Shown here: positions 14,505-58,186 of the stretch, piece by piece
Position numbering within the stretch: position 1 is the first letter of the stretch
Layout of the letters: every line of letters starts with the position of its first letter
Virus record (IMG/VR): IMGVR_UViG_3300024308_000304
Length of the DNA: 64,000 bases
Origin: an uncultured virus (IMG/VR IMGVR_UViG_3300024308_000304)
Taxonomy: Duplodnaviria; Heunggongvirae; Uroviricota; Caudoviricetes
Strand: one strand, 5' to 3'
Made by a program: the position numbers and the translations under genes
Notes under the pieces: generated by a model
Databases searched by the model: none
Seen by the model: only the letters and a program-made list of their open reading frames with translations
Told to the model about the DNA's origin: nothing

Positions 14505-14507
14505 AAA

Positions 14508-15089: not shown

Positions 15090-15092
15090 TGA

Positions 15093-23694: not shown

Positions 23695-26061
23695 TTATAC
23701 TTTAGGTTTATTTTTCTTTGGTAAAACAGATAACTCCTGTACCAATTCTTTATTGTTAACCATAAATTCATCTCTTAAATCAATAATGCTACGCTTCCTT
23801 TGCTCTGATGGCAATACTTTGATGTAATTCAAAAATTCAACTGCTAATTTTTTATCAACATCATTAATTAAGAAGTGATTATTAACTAAATTAACAGTAT
23901 CAAATTTATCACCTTTAAGTTCAGAACGTTCCATCTTCTCAACAAAGCCACGCATAGTTTTCCAGAAGCTGTAATATGGAAGTTTAATCTTAATCATATT
24001 CAATGCATCATCTTCACACACAAAACCTTCAAATTGTCTCTTAGTAGTGAAAGCACTTTCATTAGAAACTGAATTAAAGAATTTTTCAAAATTTTCTGGA
24101 GATTCAAAATGAGCAAATCTTTTTTTCACTTTAAGATCTTTAAATCCTTCTGCAAACTTTGTTAATTCTTCATAATTCAATTGTGAGAACTTGAATTCTC
24201 TCTTAACAATACCAATCAATACCAAGTGTGGTGTATCATATTTCACAATATGAGGATCATTTACTGGATCATTCACTTCAAACAGATAATTAACATTATG
24301 CTTGTTAGCAAAAATCTTCATATGTTCTAATTCAGATTTAGTAAACTGAGCTTTGGCAATATCTTTCAAATAAGTAGAAAATTCTCCACCAATATCTGAT
24401 TTAGAAGCAAAGATGAGGCTATCATTCTTTGAATCATAACCAACAATACCTAAGAAACCATTCTCTTTTTCATAAAGATTGATTTTTCCTTTAAAATTAC
24501 TTTTTACAACTTCCATTTTCGCAGAAGGAATTCCTCGTTCATTAACATTAAAGAACTTTTCAAAACCACGAGCTACAATTTCACCTGACTCAGTATTAAT
24601 AAACAAACCACGAGCATGAATTAAAAGCTCATTTTCAAAACGTTTATCAAAAAAAGCTTCTTTCTTGAAATTGAAAGCTGAAATATGTGGTAAGTCTTCA
24701 AATGTTTTTTCACGAATAAGTTCATTTGCTCTCAAATCTTTAACAATCTCAAGATTTTCTTTACTGTAGTTTACTTTATTTTCTAAAAAATCACTCAAAT
24801 TGTTAACATCTGCTTTTGTTATAAACATATTTTTTTCTTTTTCAATCTTCTCAACAGCAGTTTTATTAAATACTTTATTAGTAATATAAATACCATTAAA
24901 ACCGTTTTTATCCAATCTAAGAATTGGCAAGCTACCACCATATTCAACATCAGCCTCAAGAGCAAAGCTTTTTGGGTGAGTCTCAAAACCATGTTTATAT
25001 TGGTTTCTATGGCCATGAACTTGATACCAGTTATTATCTTGGTTTAGTTCATTAAATGTTTTATCAACATCATAACTGTAAGAACCATAACCTCTCATAT
25101 ATTCAATAGTAGTCAAAAGTCTTGGATGTTTAGGTACATTAGCAAGACCAGCATGAGTTGCCATAATATTTTTATCTCTATAATGAATAAAGCTGTAAAG
25201 ATGAAGCTTATTATAAAGCTCACGCATATCTTCTTTATTAATACCAGCTTTTAACAACTGTGGTAATGTATTATAAGTAAATTCACTTGGTGGAGTCAAA
25301 ATATCATTACTGTAGTTATACAAGTGTAATTCATGGTTCCCAGCTAAAAAAACAAAGTTCTCATAATCAATATATTTCTGAACGAAACGGAAACATTTAT
25401 CATTCTGAATACCACGATCAAGATAGTCGCCAACTAAAATATAGACTTCATCCTTGCTATAAGTGTTTTGTTCAAAGAACTGTTTCAATGGATAGAATGA
25501 ACCTTGAAGATCACCAATCCAGTTAATTTTCTTATAATGACTAAGATCCAAAAGTAAAGATTCTGGAGTTGCTTTTACATAAGCAAGAGCTTGTTCTGGT
25601 GTAATAATTTTAGATGGATCATCAAATTTTGAATTAACAAACAAATCATAGTTACGATCAAGGGCTTCTTTAGGAAGTCTTTTATACGTTTCACGTTGTT
25701 CATTTCTTTTATAATAGAATTCTTTATCCATCAATGGGAAACGAACAATTCTGTAGTCATAATGATATTGTTTCATAATGTCTAAATAAGTATCAATTGA
25801 TTTTTGATCTTGGTTTAAGTTATCAATGAAAATAGCTCCGCCATTACTCAACCTTACTTTAAATGCTTCAATAAATTTAGCAAAAACAAAATCCTCTCTA
25901 TTATTAGAAAGAACAAGATTACCAAACATATCAGTAGCAGCACCAGCGTAGACATGACGAATCGCATCCAAAGACAATGTATGTGGGTCTAATTCGTTCT
26001 CATGAATAAATGTTGATTTACCTGTTCCTGGCATTGCTGAAAGAAAATACACAATTCTCAT
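23695..26061 (-). CDS. Trifunctional RNA repair enzyme: polynucleotide kinase, metallophosphoesterase and Rnl1-like RNA ligase
   Basis: AMPGTGKS; GDLQG, GDYLDRG, GNHE, HGH; EKFFN, KENGFLG (motif I), EGFV, IKIK. Confidence 0.88.
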   Translation of the reverse strand: MRIVYFLSAMPGTGKSTFIHENELDPHTLSLDAIRHVYAGAATDMFGNLVLSNNREDFVFAKFIEAFKVRLSNGGAIFIDNLNQDQKSIDTYLDIMKQYHYDYRIVRFPLMDKEFYYKRNEQRETYKRLPKEALDRNYDLFVNSKFDDPSKIITPEQALAYVKATPESLLLDLSHYKKINWIGDLQGSFYPLKQFFEQNTYSKDEVYILVGDYLDRGIQNDKCFRFVQKYIDYENFVFLAGNHELHLYNYSNDILTPPSEFTYNTLPQLLKAGINKEDMRELYNKLHLYSFIHYRDKNIMATHAGLANVPKHPRLLTTIEYMRGYGSYSYDVDKTFNELNQDNNWYQVHGHRNQYKHGFETHPKSFALEADVEYGGSLPILRLDKNGFNGIYITNKVFNKTAVEKIEKEKNMFITKADVNNLSDFLENKVNYSKENLEIVKDLRANELIREKTFEDLPHISAFNFKKEAFFDKRFENELLIHARGLFINTESGEIVARGFEKFFNVNERGIPSAKMEVVKSNFKGKINLYEKENGFLGIVGYDSKNDSLIFASKSDIGGEFSTYLKDIAKAQFTKSELEHMKIFANKHNVNYLFEVNDPVNDPHIVKYDTPHLVLIGIVKREFKFSQLNYEELTKFAEGFKDLKVKKRFAHFESPENFEKFFNSVSNESAFTTKRQFEGFVCEDDALNMIKIKLPYYSFWKTMRGFVEKMERSELKGDKFDTVNLVNNHFLINDVDKKLAVEFLNYIKVLPSEQRKRSIIDLRDEFMVNNKELVQELSVLPKKNKPKV

Positions 26062-36053: not shown

Positions 36054-36139
36054 GCGGATGTGGCGAAATTTGGTAAACGCGACCGTCTCAAAAACGGTTC
36101 TTTATAAGATTGTGAGTTCGAGTCTCACCATCCGCACCA
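36054..36139 (+). tRNA. tRNA-Leu(CAA)
   Basis: Cloverleaf, loop CT-CAA-AA, long variable arm, ACCA end. Confidence 0.92.
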
Positions 36140-36224
36140 AATAAAAAATGGGTTGCTCTGGTCACTGACTGGAACCTTTAAAACATACTAACTATGAATA
36201 CTAGTATTATTAAAGGCAAACCCC

Positions 36225-36309
36225 TGACAAAAGTGATGAAATGGTAGCCATGACACCGAGCGAAGGTGTGCCCAATAAGGCGTGAGGGTTCAAGTCCCTT
36301 CTTTTGTCA
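36225..36309 (+). ncRNA. tRNA-Leu-like RNA with aberrant anticodon loop (GAGCGAA), 9-bp acceptor helix, no CCA
   Basis: Intact D arm, variable arm and T arm (GGGTTCAAGTCCC); lacks U33. Confidence 0.7.
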
Positions 36310-36320
36310 AGTTTAAGAAT

Positions 36321-36404
36321 GCGTTAGTGGTGGAATGGTATACACGTTGGTCTAAGAAGCCAATGCCGCAAGGATTGAGAGTTCAAGTCTCTCCTAACGC
36401 ACCA
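36321..36404 (+). tRNA. tRNA-Leu(AAG)
   Basis: Loop CT-AAG-AA, long variable arm, ACCA. Confidence 0.92.
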
Positions 36405-36415
36405 AATTAAGATAT

Positions 36416-36500
36416 GCCCTGATGTTGGAATAGGTAGACATAACGGTCTAAGAAGCCGTGGCCGAAAGGCATGCGAGTTCGAGTCTCGCTTAGGGCACCA
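36416..36500 (+). tRNA. tRNA-Leu(AAG)
   Basis: Loop CT-AAG-AA, ACCA. Confidence 0.92.
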
Positions 36501-36509
36501 AATATAAAA

Positions 36510-36594
36510 GCCTCTCTGGCGGAATTGGTAGACGCGGCGGATTCAAAATCCGCTTCCGAAAGGAGTGTGGGTTCGAGTCCCACGGGAGGCACCA
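36510..36594 (+). tRNA. tRNA-Leu(CAA)
   Basis: Loop TT-CAA-AA, ACCA. Confidence 0.93.
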
Positions 36595-36610
36595 AATTGT
36601 TACAAATTAT

Positions 36611-36696
36611 GCCCAAATGGTGAAATTGGTAGTACACAGGAGACTTAAAATCTCCCGGCGAAAGTCGTGTCGGTTCGAGTCCGACTTTGGGCACCA
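36611..36696 (+). tRNA. tRNA-Leu(TAA)
   Basis: Loop CT-TAA-AA, ACCA. Confidence 0.93.
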
Positions 36697-36835
36697 GATT
36701 ATTACAAACAGCCCGTAGTTACTAGGGTGTTGATAGGAGCTAAAGAAATGCTGCTTGATAAGTGTTTAAATGTACACCTCTTGCGGGAGAAAGGTCAAGG
36801 TGCGGGCGTTGATTATCAACTTGTAATAAAAATAT

Positions 36836-36919
36836 GCGGAAGTGACGAAATGGTAGACGTGCTGGTCTTAGAAGCCAGTGTCGAAAGACGTGTGGGTTCG
36901 AGTCCCACCTTCCGCACCA
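36836..36919 (+). tRNA. tRNA-Leu(TAG)
   Basis: Loop CT-TAG-AA, ACCA. Confidence 0.93.
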
Positions 36920-36921
36920 GA

Positions 36922-37073
36922 TTGCTTAAATGATGGAATGGTAGACATAGGGTGATAGCCCTGTCATTTACAGGTTCGAATCCTGTTATTAGCAGAAATG
37001 TTAATATGGCGGAACGGTAGACGCGATGGACATTGAGTCCATGACTTGTAGGTTCGAGTCCTACTTTAAGCAA
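36922..37073 (+). ncRNA. Strand-swapped double tRNA-like RNA
   Basis: Two D/T-arm sets; outer 9-bp helix TTGCTTAAA/TTTAAGCAA; inner 8-bp helix TATTAGCA-GAAA-TGTTAATA. Confidence 0.75.
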
Positions 37074-37081
37074 CATATTAT

Positions 37082-37165
37082 GCGTTAGTGGTGGAATGGT
37101 ATACACGCTGGTCTAAGAAGCCAGTGCCGAAAGGATTGTGAGTTCGACTCTCACCTAACGCACCA
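37082..37165 (+). tRNA. tRNA-Leu(AAG)
   Basis: Loop CT-AAG-AA, ACCA; near-duplicate of 36321..36404. Confidence 0.92.
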
Positions 37166-37186
37166 GATTAAAAAAAATGTGTTTAT

Positions 37187-37271
37187 CCCCGGATGGTGGA
37201 ATTGGTAGACACAGGAGACTTAAAATCTCCCGGCGAAAGCCGTGTCGGTTCGAGTCCGACTCCGGGGACCA
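37187..37271 (+). tRNA. tRNA-Leu(TAA)
   Basis: Loop CT-TAA-AA, ACCA. Confidence 0.93.
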
Positions 37272-37281
37272 GTTTTAAAAA

Positions 37282-37373
37282 TTCAATATCGAAGGTTCGA
37301 ATCCTTCTCTCGTGTAATAACGGGGTGGTGAAGTGGTAGACACGTTTGCTGAAATGCATTCTAAAATATTGGA
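37282..37373 (+). ncRNA. Circularly permuted tRNA-like RNA (T arm, closed acceptor helix, D arm), Y-RNA-like topology
   Basis: GAAGG-TTCGAAT-CCTTC, then TCTCGT/ACGGGG, then GTG-AAGTGGTAGA-CAC, enclosed by TTCAATAT/ATATTGGA. Confidence 0.65.
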
Positions 37374-37385
37374 TTACTTTTTTAA

Positions 37386-37471
37386 GCCCGAGTGGTGAAA
37401 TGGTAGACGCGGGGGACTTAAAATCCCTTTCCTTAATCGGAGTGCCGGTTCGAGTCCGGCTTCGGGCACCA
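37386..37471 (+). tRNA. tRNA-Leu(TAA)
   Basis: Loop CT-TAA-AA, ACCA. Confidence 0.92.
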
Positions 37472-37541
37472 AATGTATACTAAAATTTGTTGACTTATTT
37501 TAATATTTGATTTAAAATATCGGCAAATTGAGGTAAATAAA

Positions 37542-37883
37542 ATGAATAAAAAATCTAAAGGACAAGTAGTTTTTGTCAATCTGTATGATAACCGTTATTG
37601 GAATGTATTTCTTGATGGTGAATTATTTCATGAAATACATAAGGAAGACTTCACAACATATGTCTTCAGAGAATCAAACAGAAAAGCATTGGCTAAAGCA
37701 TCATCACTTGATGAAAAAGATCTTCGTTATTCTTATATAGATCTTGAAAATGGCATTAATGAAGATGAATACAATTCAAATGATTATCAAGAATTTCAAG
37801 TAGTTTTAAGTGCTTGCAATTTCTATAATATTGATTATGTATTTAAAGATGTAAACTACGAATACATTGAAACTAAATACTAA
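37542..37883 (+). CDS. Hypothetical protein inside the tRNA array
   Basis: 113 aa, GAGGT RBS, own TTGACT promoter. Confidence 0.7.
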   Translation: MNKKSKGQVVFVNLYDNRYWNVFLDGELFHEIHKEDFTTYVFRESNRKALAKASSLDEKDLRYSYIDLENGINEDEYNSNDYQEFQVVLSACNFYNIDYVFKDVNYEYIETKY

Positions 37884-37912
37884 TAATTGGTAGAATGTAG
37901 TAATAAATTAAT

Positions 37913-37997
37913 GCGGAAGTGATGGAATGGTAGACATAGCAGTCTCAGAAGCTGCTGCTGTAATGGCGTGAGAGTTCAAGTCTCTTCTTCCGTACCA
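37913..37997 (+). tRNA. tRNA-Leu(CAG)
   Basis: Loop CT-CAG-AA, ACCA. Confidence 0.92.
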
Positions 37998-45504: not shown

Positions 45505-45529
45505 AAATAAAGCCTCCGATGAGGCTTTT

Positions 45530-46276
45530 TTAATAGGTTAAAATTTCTGAAAGTTCCACAAATTTATCAATATGTTCACTGTCCAAATACTCAGAAAAAT
45601 CAACTCCTTCATAAGCAGGAACCTTCATTTTCTTTAATTTTAAAGATATTGTTTTATCAGTTTTATAATTATACATAAAACCCAAATCTCTCGATGTAGG
45701 TACAAATTTATGATAATCTTCTAATATACGCCTTACAATATCGTAAGAGTTACATCTTCCTTGACTAGTTGGAACCGTCATTACAACAATACCATCTGGA
45801 TGATATGTATATGATGGATTTTCTGACTCTCTATAACTGTCTATAAATTTTATTGTTTGTAATGTAATTAAACTGTTTTTCAACGTAAAATTAATCTCTA
45901 AATCACCACTGATAACAGGATCAGGATAACGTTTTTTATCAATAAATAACTTTAATATTGTTATATAGTTATCCATAATGTTTAGTAATCTACTTTTTTC
46001 ATTAAGCAGAAGATTTTGATCTATTTGATTTCTAATATAATCAAGTCTACCATTAATAATAAGTGTACATAAGAATGTAGAATTATCTTTTTCAATCACT
46101 TTCAAATGAATGTCATTATGGATTCCAAAACAAATATCATAATCAGATAAGGGTGTCTTTTCACTTAATGATGCCAAATAAAACTTGTCTTTCAAATTAA
46201 ATTGAATATCAGTTTTATAAAAATTGAAAATTTTCAATAATTCTTGTAATAAAATATCTGAATTAATTTTATTCAT
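45530..46276 (-). CDS. Hypothetical protein, paralog of 46276..47085
   Basis: Shared IxGxxxY...EKS, (I/V)xFTL, FxEYL blocks. Confidence 0.7.
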   Translation of the reverse strand: MNKINSDILLQELLKIFNFYKTDIQFNLKDKFYLASLSEKTPLSDYDICFGIHNDIHLKVIEKDNSTFLCTLIINGRLDYIRNQIDQNLLLNEKSRLLNIMDNYITILKLFIDKKRYPDPVISGDLEINFTLKNSLITLQTIKFIDSYRESENPSYTYHPDGIVVMTVPTSQGRCNSYDIVRRILEDYHKFVPTSRDLGFMYNYKTDKTISLKLKKMKVPAYEGVDFSEYLDSEHIDKFVELSEILTY

Positions 46277-47085
46277 TAATACTTTACCAAAGAGATGAAA
46301 TCTAATGCTTCTTGAATATTATCTTCATAAAGATATTCATGAAAATTAACATTATTATCAAATTTGTCATTTAAAGAGTCCAACTTAGAAGAATGAATAT
46401 TATTATCAATACGAGATAAAACTAATCCTTGTGTTGGAAGATTGATAGAAGAAGCAGTATAACAATCATCTATAAAGAATAAACCTTTATAAAAATAGTG
46501 AGTCCTGTGATTTATATAAGATTTAATAGATTTTATAAAGTTGCCAGAAATATATTCATATGTTTTGATGTGATCAAGACACCAATCATGATTAACTAAA
46601 GTAAATTGAACATCAATACTTCCAACTATATGTGCCCCTTTACTATAATTGTCATTATAATTATCTTCATCACCTTGTAGAATAATTTTATAATAATTTT
46701 CAATAGCTTTTAAATAATTTGATTTTTCCTCAAAATTAAGGATGTTTTCGAACTGTGCCAACATGTAATTGGCATCCCCTGAAATAGTAATTTGAAATTT
46801 TCGAAAAGCATTTTTAGTTTTCAAAACAGTAACTGTTACACTATTTTCTTTGTCAAAGTCTTTAATCATATTAATAACTGAACTATATTGAATATCTGAT
46901 TTAGACATATAATAATTCTTTGTTTCATAATAATTTTTACGATGTTTTCTGGAATAAGCATTATGTCTCTTATCAATATATTTTTTAGACCATTTAAGAT
47001 CTTTATGATCAATCATACTAAAATTCAACAAATCAATATTAAGAAAATTATTGAGCACATCTACATTTAATTTGTGATTTTTCAT
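46276..47085 (-). CDS. Hypothetical protein, paralog of 45530..46276
   Basis: Translationally coupled to the nadR-like gene. Confidence 0.7.
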   Translation of the reverse strand: MKNHKLNVDVLNNFLNIDLLNFSMIDHKDLKWSKKYIDKRHNAYSRKHRKNYYETKNYYMSKSDIQYSSVINMIKDFDKENSVTVTVLKTKNAFRKFQITISGDANYMLAQFENILNFEEKSNYLKAIENYYKIILQGDEDNYNDNYSKGAHIVGSIDVQFTLVNHDWCLDHIKTYEYISGNFIKSIKSYINHRTHYFYKGLFFIDDCYTASSINLPTQGLVLSRIDNNIHSSKLDSLNDKFDNNVNFHEYLYEDNIQEALDFISLVKY

Positions 47086-48101
47086 ATTGCATCCTTATAA
47101 ATTTGTTTTGCATTGTTGCTGAAATAACTTAAAGCTTCATTAGCATTTAATTCTATAAATTTTTTACCATAAAGAACTAACTCTTTTTTAAATTCATCAT
47201 GAAACCAATTTCGATCTACTTCATTTTCAAAATAACGATAAGTTTCATCAACCCAAGGGATAGATGGTGATAAAAGAACATAGAAACCATCTTTTTGTTT
47301 ATTGATAATATTATCAAAAAACTCTATTCCATCATTTCCAAAAAACTTTCGATACCAAATTTTAGATGAGATAGCATCAGTATCATGGAAACAGAAAATG
47401 TTACTTTCTTTTCGTACAGTATTTTGCAAGGCTAACTGACCACGAACAATGTTGTACATGTCATTAGGTGAAATATCGCTACCTTTTTCCGCAATATAAT
47501 CAATTGCATATTCAGGGACGTTAATTGTTTTATATTCCTGAGCTAGTTTCTTTGCTAAAGTAGTTTTGCCAGTGGATTCACCACCAACAATAAAAATATC
47601 TTTAGTTAAATAATCATTAGTAACATTAGGAATGAATTTTTTTACATTGAGAAAATCTTCTTGATTTCCATCAAGATAAGCATCAATAGCATTACGAATA
47701 ATAGTTGCAGAAATAGGATAAATGGTTCTTGCTTTATCAACCATGATATATTCACAACCAATGACTTCGCCTAATTTTTTAATATAATCCATAGATCCAA
47801 TAATATAATCGGGTTTATAGCCTACGTTTCTGACAATATAGTCTCGCCAAGCCTCCCAAAAAACAGGAGATTCTTCTGGTTCCTGAAAAGTAACTTCATC
47901 AATGCCTTTAACGATAACATCAGGAAAACGTGCAGAAACAATATCTACACGATCTTTCAGATTCATTGTGTCTACATGCAAAGGAAGGTTATCGACAAGA
48001 ACAGTAATTTCATCTACAAAATTTTTGGCAAATTCAATTAAATAAACATGCCCCTCATGAAGAGGCATAAACTTACCAATAACAACACCAGTAGTAGTCA
48101 T
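47082..48101 (-). CDS. nadR: NadR-like NMN adenylyltransferase / ribosylnicotinamide kinase (no HTH)
   Basis: GKFMPLHEGH, ISATIIR, GGESTGKTTLA, DTDAI. Confidence 0.88.
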   Translation of the reverse strand: MTTTGVVIGKFMPLHEGHVYLIEFAKNFVDEITVLVDNLPLHVDTMNLKDRVDIVSARFPDVIVKGIDEVTFQEPEESPVFWEAWRDYIVRNVGYKPDYIIGSMDYIKKLGEVIGCEYIMVDKARTIYPISATIIRNAIDAYLDGNQEDFLNVKKFIPNVTNDYLTKDIFIVGGESTGKTTLAKKLAQEYKTINVPEYAIDYIAEKGSDISPNDMYNIVRGQLALQNTVRKESNIFCFHDTDAISSKIWYRKFFGNDGIEFFDNIINKQKDGFYVLLSPSIPWVDETYRYFENEVDRNWFHDEFKKELVLYGKKFIELNANEALSYFSNNAKQIYKDAI

Positions 48102-48144: not shown

Positions 48145-50832
48145 TTAAACAACTTTATTTTCAAAATAAAATACATAATTTCTTATAATATCATCAATAT
48201 TAAAATCATAAGGAATATAATTTTGAATATTGCTTACCACAAAATAATCAATATATGTCATTTCAAAAAGATTAACGCTTGGATATTTAAAGCCATTTAA
48301 CATATTAAGCAAAATAGATAAATAGTTATTGTGATTGTTAAACCACTTTTCACTTTCTACCAAATCTTTATTAAAAGATAACACAATATCATTATAGTAA
48401 ACTTTTTTATTTGCTGAAACATTATAGATATGATGGTATTCATTAGAATCAAAAGACACATCAGCAATTATCTTTGCGGCCCAATTTATAGGAGTGAAAT
48501 CAAAAGATAAACCAATGGAATCCGTTGGAAGAGTTGATGATTTCAAAGACTCATCAATGAATTGATATAAAAAGGAATTTTTATCATCTGAACTCAATTG
48601 TTCTGGAAGTAATAATCCTAATCTAAACTGCTGTATATGATTATGTTTATTATAATAACTCATCATATAGTCACTTAACCATTTTGTTTGAGCATATCCA
48701 TTATACAACTCTTCACTATCAATCATCAAAGTATCTTCATCAATAATTGAATTATTAAGATGACTACCAGAGACATGAACAGATAAAGTAGACGAATAAT
48801 AAATTTTTTTAAGTATTCCATCAAAAGAGAATTGAATTATATTTGCTGATGACTTTACATTATCATTAAATAACTGATCAAAAGTTCCTATATTATTAAC
48901 ATTAGCTGCATTATGATAGATATGAGATACATTGTCTTTTATCATCTCATAATCTTTCTTGGAAAGCCCAATAAGATCATCTGAAAGACTTGTTATAGGT
49001 AATATTACTATATTGTCTTGAAGTGTATTTTTTTTCATAAACTTAGAAATAGCATCTTCATAACTAACAGCACGAATTAAACAATATATTGTTTTATAAG
49101 CGTCTTTAATTTGATGTAATATTGCACTACCAAGATGGCCAGTAACACCTGTCATTAAAGCTACATTTGTATCATGAAAATCAAGGTCTTGTGAAATTTT
49201 AATCAGACTCCAATCAATTGAGTTTACCAATTCATATTTAGTAATTGGTTTCACATGAACATAACTTATAATATCTTCAATAGTGTTTTTATCCATTAAA
49301 TAATCAAATGAAATATTCATGCCAATATTTTGAAGTTCTTTTTGTAACAAGATGAACTTCATTGAGTCTGCCCCATTATCTCTAAATGAAATATCTTCTA
49401 CTATCTCATGTCCTAATATAGAAGTAAAAATAGATGAAATTAACTTGAATAAATTATCATTGGTTAAATGTTTACTGTCATTTTTCCCATTAGCTGTTTT
49501 TGGAATGGATGTATGTAGAAAATAATGTGGGATCATATATTGTGGTAACATTTTAGAAATGAAATTTACAATATCTTTTTTATCAACATCACCTTCATAA
49601 TAAGCATGTATTTTATTATCTTTATAAACGACAGAGACATTACTAACGGCTTCAATCGCATTGATAGCTTGTTCTATCTCTTCTAAACATATTAATTGAC
49701 CATTATGTTTTATTTGTCTATCAATACGACCTATAAACTCAATACCCATATCGGTTTTAATAACTTTATCGCCTGTTTTATACCAAACAGAACCATTAAT
49801 TTCAATGAATCGTTCTTGAGTCAATTTAGGATTAGTATAACCACGAGCTAATTGAACTCCAGAAATATAAAGTTCTCCCGCTATATTGCTAACTTCTAAT
49901 TGATTTTCATCTAAAATAATATAGTGAACACCATCTAATGCTTGTCCAATTAATGGCCTTGACCAATTATTGTCACAAATAGAATAGCTTGTGCAAATGG
50001 TAGCCTCTGTTGGCCCATAAACATTAATGACTTTCATACATGCAGAATATTTTCTAACTGTTTCTGGATCTGCAACTTCACCACCAATAACAATTGATTT
50101 TAATGATGGCACATCAATTGGATTAATGAGTTTAATAAATGACGGAGGAATATCCACATAAGTAATTAAATAATCATTAATAAATTCTATAAAAGATGAA
50201 ACTTCATATTTAACACGCTCATCAATAAAAAATGTAGATGCTGATAATAATGAACAGTAAATATCTGAAAGTGAAGCATCAAAATTCATTGAAAGAAACC
50301 AATAAATATTTGAATAGTCCAACTCAAATATTTCAATTTGCTGTGAAATAACATTATCTATACCTTTAAAGTTAACTTCAACACCTTTTGGAACACCTGT
50401 AGTACCAGAAGTATAAATTGTATACATAAGGTTATTGTCATCATAATTAATGATCAAATCATCATTTGATTGAGTTAAGACATGAACGTTCAACGATTCA
50501 ATAACTGCGTTATCTTTAAATCGATTTACTGTTAAAATATCTTTAATACCTGAATCGTTAATTATAAAATTTAGTCTCTCAATTGGTAGTGAAGGATCTA
50601 ATGGAACAAAAGAACAATCTGACAAAGTTAAAGCATAGACAGCCGCCACAAAATCTGCTGATTTATCTATGAAAATACCAATTTTTTTATTTTTAATGTT
50701 TAAAGTTTGAAAACCTTTTGCATAAGATAAAAGATCTTCAAAAGTATAAGATTTTTGATAAAAGAGATCTGTTACAGCTACTGTATTCTTGTTGTTTTCT
50801 GATATAGTTGTTAATTTACTTTTAAAATTCAT
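48145..50832 (-). CDS. Stand-alone NRPS-like enzyme: adenylation, carrier (T) and thioester reductase domains
   Basis: YTSGTTGVPKG, FDAS, YGPTE, GELYISG, YKTGD, NGK; GADS carrier Ser; TGVTGHLG, YAQTK. Confidence 0.92.
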   Translation of the reverse strand: MNFKSKLTTISENNKNTVAVTDLFYQKSYTFEDLLSYAKGFQTLNIKNKKIGIFIDKSADFVAAVYALTLSDCSFVPLDPSLPIERLNFIINDSGIKDILTVNRFKDNAVIESLNVHVLTQSNDDLIINYDDNNLMYTIYTSGTTGVPKGVEVNFKGIDNVISQQIEIFELDYSNIYWFLSMNFDASLSDIYCSLLSASTFFIDERVKYEVSSFIEFINDYLITYVDIPPSFIKLINPIDVPSLKSIVIGGEVADPETVRKYSACMKVINVYGPTEATICTSYSICDNNWSRPLIGQALDGVHYIILDENQLEVSNIAGELYISGVQLARGYTNPKLTQERFIEINGSVWYKTGDKVIKTDMGIEFIGRIDRQIKHNGQLICLEEIEQAINAIEAVSNVSVVYKDNKIHAYYEGDVDKKDIVNFISKMLPQYMIPHYFLHTSIPKTANGKNDSKHLTNDNLFKLISSIFTSILGHEIVEDISFRDNGADSMKFILLQKELQNIGMNISFDYLMDKNTIEDIISYVHVKPITKYELVNSIDWSLIKISQDLDFHDTNVALMTGVTGHLGSAILHQIKDAYKTIYCLIRAVSYEDAISKFMKKNTLQDNIVILPITSLSDDLIGLSKKDYEMIKDNVSHIYHNAANVNNIGTFDQLFNDNVKSSANIIQFSFDGILKKIYYSSTLSVHVSGSHLNNSIIDEDTLMIDSEELYNGYAQTKWLSDYMMSYYNKHNHIQQFRLGLLLPEQLSSDDKNSFLYQFIDESLKSSTLPTDSIGLSFDFTPINWAAKIIADVSFDSNEYHHIYNVSANKKVYYNDIVLSFNKDLVESEKWFNNHNNYLSILLNMLNGFKYPSVNLFEMTYIDYFVVSNIQNYIPYDFNIDDIIRNYVFYFENKVV

Positions 50833-50886
50833 TATTTTTTTCCTAATTATAATCTAAAATATAAAAGCTCCCATAGGAGCATTTAA

Positions 50887-52752
50887 TTAATCATTGTTCC
50901 TTTTACAATAATTTTTATCTAAGTAATAAATACTGAAAATCATCATAATTACTGGGTCAAATGAATTGGCATTAAGTTTACCATTTTTTAATTCAGTAAT
51001 CATATTAAGAATTTTACTTTGGTCAAAGTATTCACTATTAAATATTGTAGAAGAATGAACAATATCCATAAGATGTTCGTAAACATATTTACTGTTTGTC
51101 CAATTGAAAAGTGGTGGAGCAACAAAAGGATGTTTTTGTTTGTTATAGATAGTATCACTAATATAGGGCTTCATAGCTTCTTTTAAAATATGTTTTTCAT
51201 TACCCATATATATTTTTTGTTCAAGTGGAATAGTTCTTACAAAATCAAAAAACTCTCTATCTAAAAATGGCACTCTTCCTTCAATTGTATTTGCCATCTC
51301 TAATTTATCACCCAAAGCATTGAGAATATAATTACTTAAACAAATTTTTGTCCACAAAAATGTAGAATTATTGATTTTAGGAGTCTCTTTGGACATTTCA
51401 TAAAGTCTAATCATATAACTTGCTGGGTCAGAATTGATATAATGATCCAAGAATTCTTTTTTCAATGTATAATTCTTCAATTTATAGCCCATAGAATATT
51501 TAGCTTTCAAAAATGTAGGTACATAACCCAATGTCTTTTCTATTTTTGAAACATCTAACATATCAGTGTCTGGAATTTGCATTCCACTTAAATACTTGTT
51601 TTTCTCAACATGTTTTTCATAGTCAATATCCATTTTCAAATGTGGATAACCAAAGAGTATTTCATCAGAACCTTCACCACTTAATGAAACTTTACAACCA
51701 TCATTGGCCATGTGCTTGAAGAGTAAATATTTAGATGAAACATGCATATTGATAGAAACTTGTTCTGAATGGAATATTGCCTTTTCAAGATTATCAAGAA
51801 GAATCTTTTCATTTACTTCAATAGGGTTAAATTTAGCATTATACATATTAGCCATTTCTTTAGCCGCATTCAATTCATCAAAGTCAGCACCATTTTTAAA
51901 ACTAATAGTATAAGCATTAAGATCTTTTGTAAATTCAGAAGATAATGCCAATACAGAAGCTGAATCTATACCACCACTTAAAGCAATACCTGTTTTTTTT
52001 GTAGTTTTTATTCTGCGAGATACACTTTTTTTCAATTTTTCTAAAAGAATAATTTTGTTCTCTTCTATAGAATTGTAATTCTCTTCAAATGACATTTTAA
52101 AATAGTTTATTTCTGAGAATGTTCTTTTTTTAACATCAATAACTAAAACTGTTCCCGGTTGAATTTGCTTAACTTCATCAAACAAAGTATTGTAGGTGTC
52201 ATGATATTGCATTGTAAATACACTATTTAATGAATTCATATCAAAATTTAAAGAATGCAATGCAAGGTACGCTTTTATTTCTGATGAAACATAAACATTT
52301 TCATTGTTTCTATACATATAGAGAGGTTTTATACCAAAAGAATCTCTACCTAAAAAGACACGACCTTTAATACTGTCATAAAGAAAGAATGCATATTCAC
52401 CATTTAAACGCCCCTTTTCCAAATAATCGAATAACAGACCACGCTCATATAACTGAATAATCATTTCAGAATCGGATTGAGTTTTAAAATCCATATTGAG
52501 TTCTTTTTTAATATCTTCGTAATCATAGAACTCACCATTAACTGCTGCAAAAATAGTGTTTACGGTGTTTGAAACTGGTTGCTTAGTCTTTTCACCAGTA
52601 ATACTTAAAAGATTGTGACCAATAGAAACATTGTTATCCAAGAAATAACCTGTTTCATCTCTACCACGATGACTAATACAATTTAAACCTTTTTTTACAA
52701 AATAATTATTAACTTGACCATCAAAAGAAATTTGTCCTATTATTCCACACAT
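50887..52752 (-). CDS. asnB: Asparagine synthetase (glutamine-hydrolysing) family amidotransferase
   Basis: MCGI N-terminus, RDSFGIKPLY, LSGGIDS, SGEGSDE, RVPFLD. Confidence 0.92.
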   Translation of the reverse strand: MCGIIGQISFDGQVNNYFVKKGLNCISHRGRDETGYFLDNNVSIGHNLLSITGEKTKQPVSNTVNTIFAAVNGEFYDYEDIKKELNMDFKTQSDSEMIIQLYERGLLFDYLEKGRLNGEYAFFLYDSIKGRVFLGRDSFGIKPLYMYRNNENVYVSSEIKAYLALHSLNFDMNSLNSVFTMQYHDTYNTLFDEVKQIQPGTVLVIDVKKRTFSEINYFKMSFEENYNSIEENKIILLEKLKKSVSRRIKTTKKTGIALSGGIDSASVLALSSEFTKDLNAYTISFKNGADFDELNAAKEMANMYNAKFNPIEVNEKILLDNLEKAIFHSEQVSINMHVSSKYLLFKHMANDGCKVSLSGEGSDEILFGYPHLKMDIDYEKHVEKNKYLSGMQIPDTDMLDVSKIEKTLGYVPTFLKAKYSMGYKLKNYTLKKEFLDHYINSDPASYMIRLYEMSKETPKINNSTFLWTKICLSNYILNALGDKLEMANTIEGRVPFLDREFFDFVRTIPLEQKIYMGNEKHILKEAMKPYISDTIYNKQKHPFVAPPLFNWTNSKYVYEHLMDIVHSSTIFNSEYFDQSKILNMITELKNGKLNANSFDPVIMMIFSIYYLDKNYCKRNND

Positions 52753-52764
52753 ATATTGTTATCC

Positions 52765-53625
52765 TTAAAATTTGAAAAATATTTTTTTGTCGCCTGTTTC
52801 ACTTGCTGTAAATGCTTTTTTCCAATCATCAAGTATATAGCTATCACCCAACAAGTGGTTAAAGTCCATATAATGATTTTTAGCATATTCAACAGCAAAA
52901 GCAAAGTCATGATAATATAAAGATTCAATTAAAATTTCTTTTCTGACATAATCATAGAAATTAACAGGAATATGATTTGGAAAACGACTTTTTAAAATTA
53001 ATACACCATTTTTCTTTATAATTTTAGACATAATATCAAAAGTGTGAGTTGTTGCTAACGTCTCAATTACATAATCAAAAGAATTAGGTTCAAGAACAGT
53101 TAAGCTATCAATAAGAACTACATTGTAACCATTTTTTATCATGATTTCATAAGTTAATTTGCCAATCCTATTCTCACCATAAACTGCACCAACCATTTGT
53201 TTATTAATCAATCTGCTTTTTAATGGAGCTAATGATGCTGCTATAGGTTCAATATAAGCTGAAACTCTCATATTATTAAAATTGCCCATAGAGTATACTT
53301 GAGAAGAAGGAATACTTACAAACTCTGCAAAACATCCATGATGCTCAACACCAATCATAGTTAAGTCATCATAAATTGGGTTAACAGTTACAATGTCACC
53401 TTCTTTAAATTTATTACTTTTTGATTGAGCAACATATCCAGAGAACTCATGACCTAAAACAACAGTTTCTGCTGTAATAATTTTGTTCTGAGAAGCGTAG
53501 ATATCTGTACGGCAAATACCTGCCGTATCAACTTTAATTAATACATCATGTTGATGATTTAGACTATAATCAGTAACTTCTGTGGTTTCTATATTTTTTA
53601 ATAATGCTTTCATATTTATATTCAC
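52765..53625 (-). CDS. Zn-dependent MDR alcohol dehydrogenase-like protein, compact (alternative start 53613)
   Basis: GICRTD, GHEFSG, EPIA; lacks structural-Zn loop and canonical GxGxxG. Confidence 0.8.
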   Translation of the reverse strand: MNINMKALLKNIETTEVTDYSLNHQHDVLIKVDTAGICRTDIYASQNKIITAETVVLGHEFSGYVAQSKSNKFKEGDIVTVNPIYDDLTMIGVEHHGCFAEFVSIPSSQVYSMGNFNNMRVSAYIEPIAASLAPLKSRLINKQMVGAVYGENRIGKLTYEIMIKNGYNVVLIDSLTVLEPNSFDYVIETLATTHTFDIMSKIIKKNGVLILKSRFPNHIPVNFYDYVRKEILIESLYYHDFAFAVEYAKNHYMDFNHLLGDSYILDDWKKAFTASETGDKKIFFKF

Positions 53626-53675: not shown

Positions 53676-54281
53676 TTAAATCATCATCATCTCAAATAAT
53701 TCAAATTTTTCTTTATATCCCATATTCTTAACATCAACGCCATTTGCTATAAAATAAGCATTATATTGATTCTCAATGTCATTAAATAAGTCATTAAGCT
53801 TATGATTTTCAAACATTAAAAAATAAGATGAGCTTACATAATTTTTTTTGTCAAAACAAATAGGTGTCGTACTATCATTAAAAACAAAAGTTGTAGTAAT
53901 TAAAGGTTTATTTATTATTAAATGTTTTACAAAACTTATTTCTTTGGAATATTGCTTTGACAAAAAAAAGTAAAAATTATTAATATAAAAAAGAGCTTTT
54001 TCCCCTAAATCATTAAAATTTTTATCATAAAATTTAATACATTTATTATTTTTTTTATCATATTGAATGGAAACACAAACAACAATTTCATTATTAAGCT
54101 GTTTAAGATAGGCATTTGCAATATCGCCACTGCCATTTGTCAAAGAATCATGATAAATACAAAGTCTAACATGATCAAAATATACATCACGTTTAACTTT
54201 ATAACTATCAAATTTTAAATTTAATTCTTTTTCTATCAAGTTAACAAAAAAAGAATCATTCAATTGATTTATGTTAATCAT
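53676..54281 (-). CDS. Hypothetical protein (C-terminal motif family)
   Basis: Ends FELFEMMMI. Confidence 0.65.
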   Translation of the reverse strand: MININQLNDSFFVNLIEKELNLKFDSYKVKRDVYFDHVRLCIYHDSLTNGSGDIANAYLKQLNNEIVVCVSIQYDKKNNKCIKFYDKNFNDLGEKALFYINNFYFFLSKQYSKEISFVKHLIINKPLITTTFVFNDSTTPICFDKKNYVSSSYFLMFENHKLNDLFNDIENQYNAYFIANGVDVKNMGYKEKFELFEMMMI

Positions 54282-55206
54282 TCAATTCCTTAAATGCTGG
54301 GTATTTTTTTGTAAAAATAAGTTCATAGAAATCATTGTCATTTGGAACACGCTCAATGTATTCAGGAAGTAATATTTTATCGCCTTTTAATAATTCTTCT
54401 TGAACAATATCTTCTGCATCCATAGTAAGACCTGTTAACTCATGAATTGCCAATTCAGACTTATCCTTGCCTGTTTTCAAAAGAAGTTCAATATACAATT
54501 CATTTCTTCTTAAACTCTTGAAAATAATCTCAAGACGTTTTAATTCAGAATAGAGGAATGGAACAATATCTTCTGCGTCAATATTAAAAAAATCTACGTC
54601 AACAGAGATACCATTCATAACTTCTTTTGACATTGAACTCTTTTTAAATAAAGATGACCAAACTTTATCCCTAAATCTGTATTCAGTTCTGGTTAAATCA
54701 TCTGTACAATACGTTTCATATGAAAAATCTTCAAGAATTTTTAGTTCTTCATTAATTACATTGAAGTCATCAACTATTTCTTGGTCAAAAGCCATAATAT
54801 AGACAGTGTGTTTTTTCTGACTTTTAAAATAAATATGATTGTTTGCATAATTATAATCTCTACCTTCTAAATCATAACGTGTAAACAATTTATAAGTATT
54901 TTTAACTGCTTCAAAAATGGTATCTTCATTTTTAACATAATGAGTATAAAGTGTTTTAACAGGCTCTGATTTAATATAAAAAATTTCTTTAGAGAGAATA
55001 TCAAAAATATTATCATTTGCAATATTTTTTTCTAATTTAGGATTTGAATAAACTGAGGATAATTTCGAGACTGTTTGAGCCATCTTTTTACACGCATGTT
55101 TTCGCAATAGCTCTGTAAAAATTACACGCAACTGTGCATTAACTTTATCAACCTTAGCTGAATTAGAAGTTTTTAATATAAACCCTTTAGAAATATTGAA
55201 TCCCAT
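54274..55206 (-). CDS. Hypothetical protein, paralog family A
   Basis: FSYETYCTDDLTRTEYRFRDKVW resembles the neighbours. Confidence 0.65.
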   Translation of the reverse strand: MGFNISKGFILKTSNSAKVDKVNAQLRVIFTELLRKHACKKMAQTVSKLSSVYSNPKLEKNIANDNIFDILSKEIFYIKSEPVKTLYTHYVKNEDTIFEAVKNTYKLFTRYDLEGRDYNYANNHIYFKSQKKHTVYIMAFDQEIVDDFNVINEELKILEDFSYETYCTDDLTRTEYRFRDKVWSSLFKKSSMSKEVMNGISVDVDFFNIDAEDIVPFLYSELKRLEIIFKSLRRNELYIELLLKTGKDKSELAIHELTGLTMDAEDIVQEELLKGDKILLPEYIERVPNDNDFYELIFTKKYPAFKELND

Positions 55207-55264
55207 ATCTGATACCTTTATAAATTTGATAGCAATTATACTAAATTATAGACAAAAAATCAAT

Positions 55265-56167
55265 TCAAATTACTGGATAACTCAATTTCATATTTAATAA
55301 ACTATCCATAATCAAACTTTTCGTAAACCCTGCTTCAATAGCTTTTTGTGTATACGTTAAATGTACGCCATTGTTAATGTCTTCACTAAATCTATCATGA
55401 ACATAAGAGCCAATTTTAACGGCACTAATCTCATTTTCTTCAAATTCACGCCAATAAATCTGTTTCATAGTTTTCTTATAAAATCTAATTAACAGTTCAT
55501 GATCATCAGGAATCATTTCAAACAATTTATCATTTTCTTTCGATTCTTTTTTCAAATTTATTTTTGATGGACTAATAACAAATTGATTCATTTCTAATTC
55601 TGGTTTGTACTTGAAAATATGATCCCAGTTTTTTCCTCTCAAGTTCCATTCTCTTGTTGAAATATTATCTGGCTGATCAGTAGAGGTCCAATAATTATAT
55701 GAATTTAAACCATCAATAATACTGAGATCAGTGTTATATGATAAAAGATAGTCTGAGATGCCTTGACCACCAGAAATAATGTAGTATGTAGAATTTTTAT
55801 GAGATTTAAAGAATACCGAAGCTTTATAATTGAGAACAAAATTTAAATTATGGTTTGAGCATAATTCTATCATTGATAAATGTTGCATAAAGAAACTACT
55901 TATAGATAACCTTTCTGAAAAAAATTTCTTTACAAGCATAGATTCTTGATGGTCTAAATCATAAGCATGTTCAAAATAATACCAAAAATCTAAATTTGGT
56001 CGAGTCAAAGACTCTAATTTATAATCAATTAAAGACTCTACGCATAATTTATAAATATTATTTTGTGTTAAATCAGTGATAATTTTTTTTATTTCTTCAT
56101 TAACATGTTGAACCTTATTTAAATTAGCAGAATTTAATCTATAGCCACTAAATATTGTCGTAGACAT
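55265..56167 (-). CDS. Hypothetical protein, paralog family A
   Basis: YNYWTSTDQPDNISTREWNLRGKNWD. Confidence 0.7.
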   Translation of the reverse strand: MSTTIFSGYRLNSANLNKVQHVNEEIKKIITDLTQNNIYKLCVESLIDYKLESLTRPNLDFWYYFEHAYDLDHQESMLVKKFFSERLSISSFFMQHLSMIELCSNHNLNFVLNYKASVFFKSHKNSTYYIISGGQGISDYLLSYNTDLSIIDGLNSYNYWTSTDQPDNISTREWNLRGKNWDHIFKYKPELEMNQFVISPSKINLKKESKENDKLFEMIPDDHELLIRFYKKTMKQIYWREFEENEISAVKIGSYVHDRFSEDINNGVHLTYTQKAIEAGFTKSLIMDSLLNMKLSYPVI

Positions 56168-56178
56168 AATCAAACTCC

Positions 56179-57099
56179 TTATTTATTAATATCTGAAAAG
56201 TTAAATACTTCAGTAAAAAGATCTTGAGTAATCATATCTTTTTGCAATCTATATTCTTTAGCTATATCCGCCATTTCTAACAGATGACCTGAATTTAACC
56301 CTTCTTCTATATGTTCTTTAGCATACTTATTTGCTTTAGCCATACTTCTAGATTCACCAGATGCAATTTGTCTTTCTAGTTCTTCTGCTACAAAATCGTT
56401 ATATTTAATTTCTTTGTACATTAATTTAAGAAGGTTAAAATCATTAGGTACTAATTCATATATGCTACTGAATTCTTGCATTTCAAGAACATTTGGCAAT
56501 ACATACACAGTGTTCATATCTTGAGATGGATAATACTTAACAATATTATCCCAATTCTCAATTCGTTTGTTCCAATCAGCAGAAGTAATGTGAGAAGGAC
56601 GGTCAGTATTATTCCAATATTCATACAATTTGAAATCTCTACCAGCAACTGAACGGTATTTTGATTTAAAATATGATTTTACAGCAGAAACACCAAGCAT
56701 GATATAATAAGTATGACCTTCATAAAACTTAAAGCCAAAACCTGTTCGTTTATTAAGATGTAAATCTAAATTCATTTCAGATGCTAATTCAATCATGCGA
56801 ATATAATTATGATAAAATGTACGATGACTATGTTCATCTACAAGCATATTTTTAAATCGTGTAAATTCTCGGCTATTACCCAAAATACTAGCATGTTCTA
56901 AATATTGCCAAAATGTAATATCTTTATTTTTTTCTTCTGCTTGATATAAACGGAAATGAATCATTTCATTAACAATATTATTTTTTACAATATTATAAAC
57001 TTCATCTTTCATGAATTGTTTAATTTTATCATTAATGATTTGAATGTTTTCACCATTAACGTCATTAATTCTATAAGCATCGGCAATAACTGTAGACAT
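56179..57099 (-). CDS. Hypothetical protein, paralog family A
   Basis: YEYWNNTDRPSHITSADWNKRIENWD. Confidence 0.7.
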   Translation of the reverse strand: MSTVIADAYRINDVNGENIQIINDKIKQFMKDEVYNIVKNNIVNEMIHFRLYQAEEKNKDITFWQYLEHASILGNSREFTRFKNMLVDEHSHRTFYHNYIRMIELASEMNLDLHLNKRTGFGFKFYEGHTYYIMLGVSAVKSYFKSKYRSVAGRDFKLYEYWNNTDRPSHITSADWNKRIENWDNIVKYYPSQDMNTVYVLPNVLEMQEFSSIYELVPNDFNLLKLMYKEIKYNDFVAEELERQIASGESRSMAKANKYAKEHIEEGLNSGHLLEMADIAKEYRLQKDMITQDLFTEVFNFSDINK

Positions 57100-57175
57100 A
57101 GTTTTCTCCATTAAAATATGCTTAATGGTATCAAAAATTAATTATATAGTCAATAAAAAAAGCTCCGAAGAGCTT

Positions 57176-58186
57176 TTATTTTGCGTTTTTAACACTAATG
57201 GCCAAATCAAGCATTCTATTAGAGAATCCCCATTCATTGTCATACCAAGCAAAAACTTTAATCATTTTATCTTGAACAAAAGTTTGAGTGGAATCAAAAA
57301 CACTTGATTGACTGTTATGGTTGAAATCTACAGACACCAAAGGCTCTTCATTATAACCAAGAACACCATTAAATATTTTATTAGCTACTGCTGTTTTAAA
57401 CACGGCATTCAGTTCTTCTTTGGTTGTTGACTTAGAAATATTACAAGTAAAATCTACCAAAGATACATTTGGAGTAGGCACACGCACAGCCAAACCATTA
57501 ATCTTGCCCTGTAACTCTGGAATAATTAACCCAATTGCTTTGGCAGCACCTGTTTTAGATGGAATCATAGATAATGTTGCCGCTCTTGCTCTATACAGAT
57601 CACTGTGATCAGTATCAATTAAACGTTGGTCACCAGTATATGAATGGATAGTCGTCATGAACCCACTTTCAATTCCAAACTCACTATGAATCAGTGCAGC
57701 AACAGGTGCCAAGCAATTTGTTGTACAGGATGCATTGGAAATAACTATATCATCTTTTGTGAGAGATTTTTCATTTACCCCCCATACTATAGTCTTATCT
57801 GCTCCATCACAAGGGGCTGAAATTATCACTTTTTTAGCACCAGCTTGAATATGAGCTAAAGCTGTTTCTTTTTTAGTGTATTTACCAGTACAATCAAAAA
57901 CAATATCAATATCCAATTCTTTCCAAGGGAGTTGTGCAGCATCTTTGATTGAATAATATTTTATTTTGTGATTATTGATGCAAATATTGCCATCATTAAT
58001 TTTTAGATTTCTATCGAAAGCTTTATGTACACTATCATATTTAAGTAAATGAGTTGCATGTTCAATAGAAGATAAATCATTTATGGCCACGATTTGTATA
58101 GAACTTTTATAATGTGGAGCTTCATAGAATGCTCTTAATATATTTCTACCAATCCTTCCAAAACCATTAATAGCTATTTTAACCAT
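57176..58186 (-). CDS. gap: Type I glyceraldehyde-3-phosphate dehydrogenase
   Basis: INGFGRIGR, NASCTTNCL, TGAAKA, WYDNEWG. Confidence 0.96.
   Translation of the reverse strand: MVKIAINGFGRIGRNILRAFYEAPHYKSSIQIVAINDLSSIEHATHLLKYDSVHKAFDRNLKINDGNICINNHKIKYYSIKDAAQLPWKELDIDIVFDCTGKYTKKETALAHIQAGAKKVIISAPCDGADKTIVWGVNEKSLTKDDIVISNASCTTNCLAPVAALIHSEFGIESGFMTTIHSYTGDQRLIDTDHSDLYRARAATLSMIPSKTGAAKAIGLIIPELQGKINGLAVRVPTPNVSLVDFTCNISKSTTKEELNAVFKTAVANKIFNGVLGYNEEPLVSVDFNHNSQSSVFDSTQTFVQDKMIKVFAWYDNEWGFSNRMLDLAISVKNAK

Follow-up and report, generated by a model that had tools for sequence, protein, structure and literature searches.

The described enzymes closest to the one considered here are stand-alone reductases in which an adenylation (A), a carrier (T) and a thioester-reductase (R) domain follow one another. 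Fungal Lys2 and the glycine-betaine reductase ATRR, bacterial CAR, PvfC and the terminal module of AusA combine ATP-dependent loading of their substrate with NAD(P)H-dependent release of an aldehyde or alcohol; AusA, PvfC and LnaA release amino aldehydes that dimerise. A nonribosomal peptide synthetase (NRPS)-like reductase with this A-T-R order, referred to below as ATR, is encoded in the 64,000-nucleotide stretch of DNA recorded as IMG/VR IMGVR_UViG_3300024308_000304 (the window), where it forms a cassette with a short zinc dehydrogenase (MDR), an AsnB-type glutamine-dependent amidotransferase and a NadR-like protein. Taken singly, ATR reductases, AsnB homologues, MDRs and NadR are all familiar proteins; to judge from the sequences, it is their conserved coupling and fusion that would be new. 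The coupling of ATR, NadR-like and AsnB-type proteins and the associated fusion were not found in the full-text open literature searched. It is possible, if somewhat unlikely, that the cassette represents a widespread undescribed route in which a dedicated NRPS-like reductase feeds a NadR-derived kinase/nucleotidyltransferase, the product being an AsnB-amidated nucleoside diphosphate (NDP)-amino alcohol or a non-nicotinamide NAD-like dinucleotide.

Composition and conservation of the cassette

The four genes lie on the minus strand. They encode the MDR (52765–53625; 286 residues; Pfam ADH_N, E = 8.9e-15), the AsnB-type amidotransferase (50887–52752; 621 residues; Pfam GATase_7 and Asn_synthase), ATR (48145–50832; 895 residues; Pfam AMP-binding, PP-binding and NAD_binding_4) and the NadR-like protein (47082–48101; 339 residues), in which an HxGH nucleotidyltransferase is joined to an AAA_28 P-loop kinase (Pfam CTP_transf_like and AAA_28). 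The original prediction, made by a model from the letters of the window, had described the first three as a compact cluster of co-oriented genes with intact catalytic motifs and the same AT-rich composition as the flanks. The three open reading frames (ORFs), their domains and their motifs are all present on that strand, and the GC fraction is 0.27–0.28 in the cluster and 0.27–0.30 in the flanks. The limit of the unit was drawn too narrowly, in that the NadR-like gene belongs to the conserved set as a fourth member.

For comparison, nine metagenome loci (L147–L155) were retrieved with a family-specific DNA pattern, and their genes were located by tblastn. Cassette genes occur together in all nine, so that the synteny proposed as a check on the cluster is indeed conserved: seven loci (L149–L155) hold all four genes, and the short contigs L147 and L148 hold every cassette gene that their extent allows. 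The loci are far from uniform. Identities to the window proteins range from 23 to 55% for ATR, 30 to 75% for AsnB, 39 to 67% for the MDR and 26 to 70% for the NadR-like protein, falling to 23–45% in L147, L148 and L151–L154, and the GC content of the loci runs from 22% to 54%. The genes adh, asnB and ATR are adjacent in five of the nine (L148, L149, L150, L154 and L155); in L151–L153 between one and six genes, the NadR-like gene included, separate asnB from ATR, and the L147 contig ends inside asnB. L149 is on a contig of 0.6 Mb; in L150, on a contig of 1.86 Mb, the cassette stands in a different context.

The link between ATR and the NadR-like protein extends to gene fusion. In 15 of the 120 best-matching ATR homologues an AAA_28 domain follows at the C-terminus; the architecture was checked for P0060, P0067 and P0081. 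P0067 (1378 residues) consists of an A-T-R protein followed at residues 1029–1351 by a complete NadR-like unit, which is 32% identical to the window NadR-like protein over 336 residues (E = 6e-49). These fusions, to AAA_28 and to a whole NadR-like protein, speak for a kinase/nucleotidyltransferase that works in the same pathway as ATR. The atlas contains a cluster of 2,407 proteins, each about 1,125 residues long. A scan of GTDB species with generic A-domain patterns gave, among the matches listed, ordinary NRPS loci of at most 36% identity and is uninformative on distribution.

Further enzymes accompany the cassette in some lineages. Methyltransferases recur, as a standalone gene in L147, as DUF3419/methyltransferase in L152 and fused to an A-T-R protein in P0054; this resembles the logic of N-methylation of phospho-amino alcohols. 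GNAT acetyltransferases are found in L152 and L153, and L152 also carries a heme-oxygenase-like diiron enzyme.

Catalytic domains and the substrate pocket

The three domains of ATR span residues 12–457 (A; 49462–50799, minus), 465–525 (T; 49258–49440, minus) and 558–895 (R; 48148–49161, minus). The A domain (AMP-binding, E = 8e-48) contains the core motifs YTSGTTGxPKG, FDAS, NVYGPTE, YKTGD and PKTxxGKxD in its translation, none of which varies across the 20 homologues aligned. In the T domain (PP-binding, 23.7 bits; cut-off 20.8) the phosphopantetheine serine, S490, lies in a GADS motif, and 116 of 120 homologues share this serine. The R domain (NAD_binding_4, E = 3.5e-27) has the nucleotide-binding motif TGxTGxLG and the pair Y713/K717, with Tyr and Lys present in all 120 homologues; its TIGR01746 score, 119 bits, is under the 213-bit cut-off. 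The best NCBIfam match of ATR as a whole is the reductase-terminated module of AusA.

When residues are counted off from these motifs, the pocket code is D-A-S-D-V-G-V-I-C-K, identical to the one that the original prediction had read from a by-eye alignment to GrsA. The residues are D185, A186, S189, D227, V248, G250, V271, I279, C280 and K450; the position numbers used below follow GrsA, and the mapping of K450 onto 517 agrees with the 1AMU coordinates. To follow conservation of the pocket, the window protein was aligned by MAFFT with 119 homologues of 30–75% identity, all fused forms included. The family code is D-A-S-D-x-G-V-[I/V]-C-K: Asp occupies position 278 in 119 of the 120 sequences and Cys in the other, position 299 is Ile or Val in 113 and Cys, Thr or Leu in six, and the final Lys is gapped in three rows. 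A pocket so nearly fixed across 120 proteins points to a family acting on one dedicated substrate rather than to a diversifying enzyme of secondary metabolism.

The mid-pocket Asp suggests a substrate whose side chain offers an amide, an amine, a hydroxyl or another hydrogen-bond donor. Among specificity codes, those for Gln/Glu, Orn/Lys and Tyr are presumably the nearest, a likeness that names no substrate. The equivalents of D235, the Asp that binds the alpha-amino group, and of the Lys K517 are both present. Given a pocket of this amino-acid type, the product set free by ATR is most likely an amino aldehyde or alcohol, as had been proposed.

The AsnB-type protein begins with MCGI, placing the nucleophile at Cys2, and has an SGGIDS PP-loop; Cys2 and SGGxDS are invariant in all eight cassette copies. 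Its NCBIfam TIGR01536 score of 346.3 bits, against a cut-off of 267.1, establishes family membership and is not proof of asparagine as the product. When it is compared with Escherichia coli AsnB, the C-terminal half aligns poorly and the best stretch covers residues 25–163 only. The second-best solved relative is the hydroxyamidotransferase TsnB9 (7ylz), a relatedness which indicates that the AsnB family amidates carboxylates besides aspartate. An anti-phage defence system was considered and rejected: with 10 proteins scanned against the PADLOC models, the AsnB-type protein gave a weak match to a QueC-type PP-loop protein and the other nine gave none.

In the MDR, the zinc ligands C38, H59, E60 and E126 show no variation among 81 family members, and alignment to 4a2c shows the structural-zinc lobe to be deleted. 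The AlphaFold model has a pLDDT of 97.5. Its best PDB folds are 2,3-butanediol, L-idonate and threonine dehydrogenases, with TM scores of 0.84–0.87; TarJ, of the CDP-ribitol pathway, is found at rank 38 with a TM score of 0.80. The predicted fold thus matches polyol and carbonyl reductases. Family alignment makes ATG at 53613 the likely start codon rather than GTG at 53625. The short MDRs form a sizeable family, with 343 representative clusters at E <1e-30, mostly of 280–320 residues.

The NadR-like protein carries the motifs GKFMPLHEGH, ISATIIR and GGESTGKT, and a helix-turn-helix (HTH) domain is absent. Its best PDB matches are all NadR or NMNAT-RNK (nicotinamide mononucleotide (NMN) adenylyltransferase/ribosylnicotinamide kinase) proteins (8x7f, 9x6f, 1lw7 and 6gye; E = 1e-25 to 4e-14). 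Scores against the curated families are low: 113.7 bits against a cut-off of 201 for NF005988, and 182.8 against 341 for TIGR01526. The copies of the window lineage are likewise under both cut-offs (98–143 against 201 bits; 121–216 against 341 bits), and of the seven cassette copies scored two pass NF005988 and none passes TIGR01526. A 615-residue form in L150 (12465–14312) has a C-terminal extension of about 275 residues without a family match and is represented in 14 clusters (P0278–P0291); the extension is unrelated to the ORF downstream of the NadR-like gene in the window, and a search for longer NadR-like forms yielded just this one.

The original prediction also proposed that a terminator-like hairpin between asnB and ATR might tune NRPS levels. 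A hairpin does exist at 50867–50880 (minus), inside the 54-nucleotide spacer, with a 5-bp stem containing four G-C pairs and a U-rich tail. It folds weakly (−9.2 kcal/mol, z = −1.08) and does not stand out from shuffled sequences, 22 of 200 of which fold equally well or better. The spacer itself is absent in L149, L150 and L155, where the gap between asnB and ATR is 9–16 nucleotides, and a tuned regulatory role for the hairpin is therefore unlikely.

Candidate pathway and its alternatives

We put forward, tentatively, a pathway leading from an amino acid through the aldehyde or alcohol to a phosphate ester and then to an NDP-amino alcohol, with the AsnB-type enzyme amidating a carboxylate. The proposal builds on the observed parts list, motifs, synteny, fusions and pocket conservation; from these we infer the substrate, all of the chemistry and the sequence in which the reactions follow one another. 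The A domain would adenylate one dedicated alpha-amino acid, which would be loaded onto the T domain; the R domain would reduce the resulting thioester and so yield the amino aldehyde. Either the R domain or the MDR would carry the aldehyde on to the amino alcohol. The AAA_28 P-loop kinase would then phosphorylate the new primary alcohol, and the HxGH nucleotidyltransferase would couple the phosphate to a nucleoside monophosphate, giving the NDP-amino alcohol by a logic like that of the Kennedy and TarIJ pathways. The AsnB-type enzyme may amidate a carboxylate of the substrate or of an intermediate, and in other lineages the methyltransferase, GNAT and diiron oxygenase enzymes may serve as optional tailoring steps.

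A number of observations weigh against this proposal. The first concerns the carrier. The ACPS/PPTase (phosphopantetheinyl transferase) family had no match among the 67 window ORFs scanned, a gap that the original prediction had noted correctly. The T domain itself is absent from three of the 120 homologues (P0051–P0053) and from L154 (4178–6556), all of them in-frame A-R proteins of 789–792 residues; in L147 (261–2701; 54% GC) the A (460 residues) and R (353 residues) portions are separate genes, and the contig encodes no T domain. To go by their sequences, such T-less and split forms are awkward for a strictly carrier-bound mechanism. The second group of points concerns the partner enzymes. 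The MDR Rossmann motif reads G-E-N-R-I-G (G-x-N-R-I-G in the family, with R153 invariant) and is not the canonical GxGxxG. The role given to the AsnB-type enzyme, amidation of a carboxylate, is putative, and no transferase for an NDP-alcohol is encoded in the cassette. Finally, the fused form of ATR was found in none of 401 class and 401 phylum GTDB genomes (one alphaproteobacterial lineage), with two candidates per genome scored.

The NadR-like protein supplies two further points of this kind, and these bear equally on a rival in which it acts as a riboside kinase and mononucleotide adenylyltransferase and the product is NAD or an NAD analogue. The HxGH, ISxTxxR and kinase Walker A/B motifs are invariant in seven of seven cassette copies, which fits genuine NadR as well as a repurposed enzyme, and the copies in L152 and L153 exceed the NF005988 cut-off, at 263 and 267 bits against 201, so that canonical chemistry from nicotinamide riboside to NMN to NAD has to be reckoned with. 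In one version of this rival the AsnB-type protein would be an NAD-synthetase-like amidotransferase acting on a carboxylate-bearing dinucleotide, while ATR and the MDR supply or transform the base precursor. AsnB and NAD synthetase do share PP-loop chemistry, the AsnB-type protein has a weak match to Pfam NAD_synthase (E = 7.6e-4), and the genomes look salvage-dependent, a nucleoside deoxyribosyltransferase and a fusion of phosphopantetheine adenylyltransferase (PPAT) with dephospho-CoA kinase (DPCK) being encoded in the window; the exclusively NadR-type structural relatives point the same way. However, among the ORFs scanned in the nine loci there is no phosphoribosyltransferase, ribosylating enzyme or PnuC, the A-domain pocket retains the Asp and Lys that hold an alpha-amino acid, and the NadR-like proteins of the window lineage fall well under the curated cut-offs. 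Formation of the nicotinamide ring de novo from an amino aldehyde was dropped altogether, there being no chemically sensible route between the two and no ribosylating enzyme. We regard an NAD-linked pathway as an unlikely but live alternative.

The same holds, in our estimation, for a free product, which is close to the original prediction without the phage: the other three genes would make a small amino aldehyde or alcohol, or else a pyrazine-type condensate, that serves as signal or protease inhibitor, the NadR-like protein being a mere neighbour that supplies NAD. The dimerising amino aldehydes for which A-T-R enzymes are known, the match of ATR to the AusA module and the adjacency of adh, asnB and ATR in five loci would all suit such a product. 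A mere neighbour, on the other hand, accounts poorly for the fusions of ATR to AAA_28 and, in P0067, to a whole NadR-like protein, or for an adjacency that persists at about 30% identity and across a 30-point difference in GC.

Were the NDP-amino alcohol pathway or its dinucleotide variant correct, the cassette product would represent a new type of activated head group or of cofactor-like metabolite, and the NadR scaffold would have been repurposed away from NAD salvage. A single pathway would then unite the NRPS-like reductase with the NadR-type enzyme, kept across genomes of 22% to 54% GC and fused in other bacteria, and would offer a new way from an amino acid directly to nucleotide-activated amino alcohols or NAD-like molecules. 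It would also give a function to a large unannotated family, represented by the 2,407-member atlas cluster and the 343 short-MDR clusters.

Chromosomal setting and relation to described systems

The cassette is chromosomal and vertically inherited, in an uncultured, deep-branching, AT-rich bacterium with a small genome. Most genes of the window have AGGAG-type Shine-Dalgarno sites and TTGACA/TATAAT (sigma-70-like) promoters, and among the proteins encoded there are ClpA, GAPDH, thioredoxin reductase (TrxB), Fpg, MGMT and MsrA in addition to SufE, type IV pilin-like proteins and the two salvage enzymes named above. The gapdh...trxB position of the cassette is common to the window, L149 and L155, and trxB follows the cassette in L154 too. 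The exact ATR sequence of the window (P0121) is recorded on a contig of 1,539,155 bp. Relatives of ClpA are found at 61–98% identity, after which identities drop to about 45%, in proteins of several Gram-negative phyla.

The original prediction had taken the window for a phage element, in which such a cluster would be very unusual. Neither the premise nor the surprise applies to a bacterial chromosome, and for the further suggestion that the product might modify the DNA of the element we found no support. No capsid, portal, terminase or tail/packaging family was detected among the 50 ORFs scanned against PHROGs. In 50,697 GenBank phage records, megablast with 14.5 kb gave no match and tblastn with ATR gave matches of at most 30% identity, largely to contaminated or unannotated records; searches of IMG/VR brought up nothing related at more than 35% identity. 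A phage-borne or otherwise mobile island is thus most improbable: many window ORFs have no family, there are a few PHROG matches (radical-SAM-like, 47–50% identical to jumbo-phage proteins; DprA-like; MazG-like), and a tRNA array and a Pnkp/RNA-ligase gene are present, but against these stand the missing virion and packaging families, the housekeeping flanks with their shared gapdh...trxB arrangement, the identical ATR on the 1.54 Mb contig, the composition matching that of the flanks and the scarcity of relatives in phage collections.

A giant-virus origin, prompted by the 28% GC, the tRNA-Leu array, Fpg, MGMT and AsnB, was rejected on the strength of the Shine-Dalgarno sites and sigma-70-like promoters at most genes. 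The mimivirus early motif, AAAATTGA, is not enriched either (25 found against 24.1 expected).

Several other features of the window deserve mention. An Fe-S/radical-SAM-like protein (4441–5325, plus; phrog_27142, 360 bits) is 43–50% identical to proteins of Pseudomonas, Caulobacter and Brevundimonas jumbo phages annotated as rRNA methyltransferase-like; it is a bacterial gene common to jumbo phages and no sign of a phage here. A GC-richer island at 36054–37997 (plus) holds a tRNA array in which ARAGORN finds 12 genes: ten tRNA-Leu (CAA twice, AAG three times, TAA three times, TAG and CAG), an 84-nucleotide 'tRNA-Arg(GCG)' with a long arm, and a tRNA-Gln. Rfam also gives 12 tRNAs, 11 of them in common with ARAGORN, each method having one private call. 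Ten tRNA-Leu genes, three with an A34 anticodon, make an odd set for a bacterium whose genome measures about 1.5 Mb. At a distance of some 10 kb from the array, at 23695–26061 (minus), lies a gene for a 788-residue protein in which a P-loop kinase, a metallophosphatase and a T4-type RNA ligase 1 are fused, resembling Pnkp/Rnl RNA repair proteins. Three tandem ORFs of about 200 residues occupy 13887–15695 (plus), the first with a PilS/type IV pilin-like N-terminus and all three with similar upstream regions. The PPAT-DPCK fusion (2079–3209, plus; 376 residues), a cytidylyltransferase-like PPAT-type domain joined to dephospho-CoA kinase, suggests CoA salvage from pantetheine, fitting a salvage-dependent lifestyle.

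The cassette is flanked on both sides by orphan genes of the same strand. Upstream, outside the conserved core, are four lineage-specific ORFs (53676–57111, minus) for which family search gives no function, without a match in Pfam, NCBIfam, PHROG or PADLOC; three of them (54274–55206, 55265–56173 and 56179–57111, minus) are paralogues. Downstream are two lineage-specific ORFs (45530–47085, minus), weak mutual paralogues, whose start and stop codons overlap with the nadR-like gene. The orphans on both sides are soluble and rich in Asn, Lys and Tyr, their paralogue families comprising the ORFs at 54274, 55265 and 56179 and those at 46276 and 45530. Among the compared loci their homologues are confined to L149 and L155, both close relatives, and these flanking genes are fast-evolving paralogue families rather than core members. 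Terminator-like hairpins with 8-bp stems mark both edges of the minus-strand block: one upstream, after gapdh (57158–57177, minus), which is stronger than that between asnB and ATR, and another downstream (45509–45528, minus).

Set beside described systems, the NDP-amino alcohol pathway would share its mode of working, with no claim of membership, with the Kennedy-type choline/ethanolamine kinase and cytidylyltransferase, with LicA/LicC and with TarJ/TarI, in which the logic is reductase, then (kinase), then HxGH-family nucleotidyltransferase. It differs in that the cassette kinase is of the AAA_28 type and not of the choline-kinase fold, in that the alcohol would derive from an amino acid by way of a carrier-bound thioester, and in that no phosphotransferase partner has been identified. 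NadR matches the window NadR-like protein in its two-domain architecture and in all catalytic motifs; the window copy, in contrast, is without the HTH domain and under the curated cut-offs, and cassette copies adjoin or are fused to an A-T-R enzyme. With the AsnB family (asparagine synthetase B, TsnB9 and the polysaccharide and peptidoglycan amidotransferases) the window protein has in common the Ntn glutaminase with Cys2 and the PP-loop synthetase, whereas at 621 residues its C-terminal half has diverged from that of E. coli AsnB. Finally, ATR resembles the stand-alone reductases Lys2, ATRR, CAR, PvfC and the AusA terminal module in domain order, A-domain core motifs, T-domain serine, and Rossmann motif with YxxxK. 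It is set apart from solved A domains by an identity below 30%, and from these reductases by a different pocket, fixed across its family with Asp-278 in all sequences but one, and by the coupling of that family to an AsnB-type enzyme and its coupling or fusion to a NadR-like kinase/nucleotidyltransferase.

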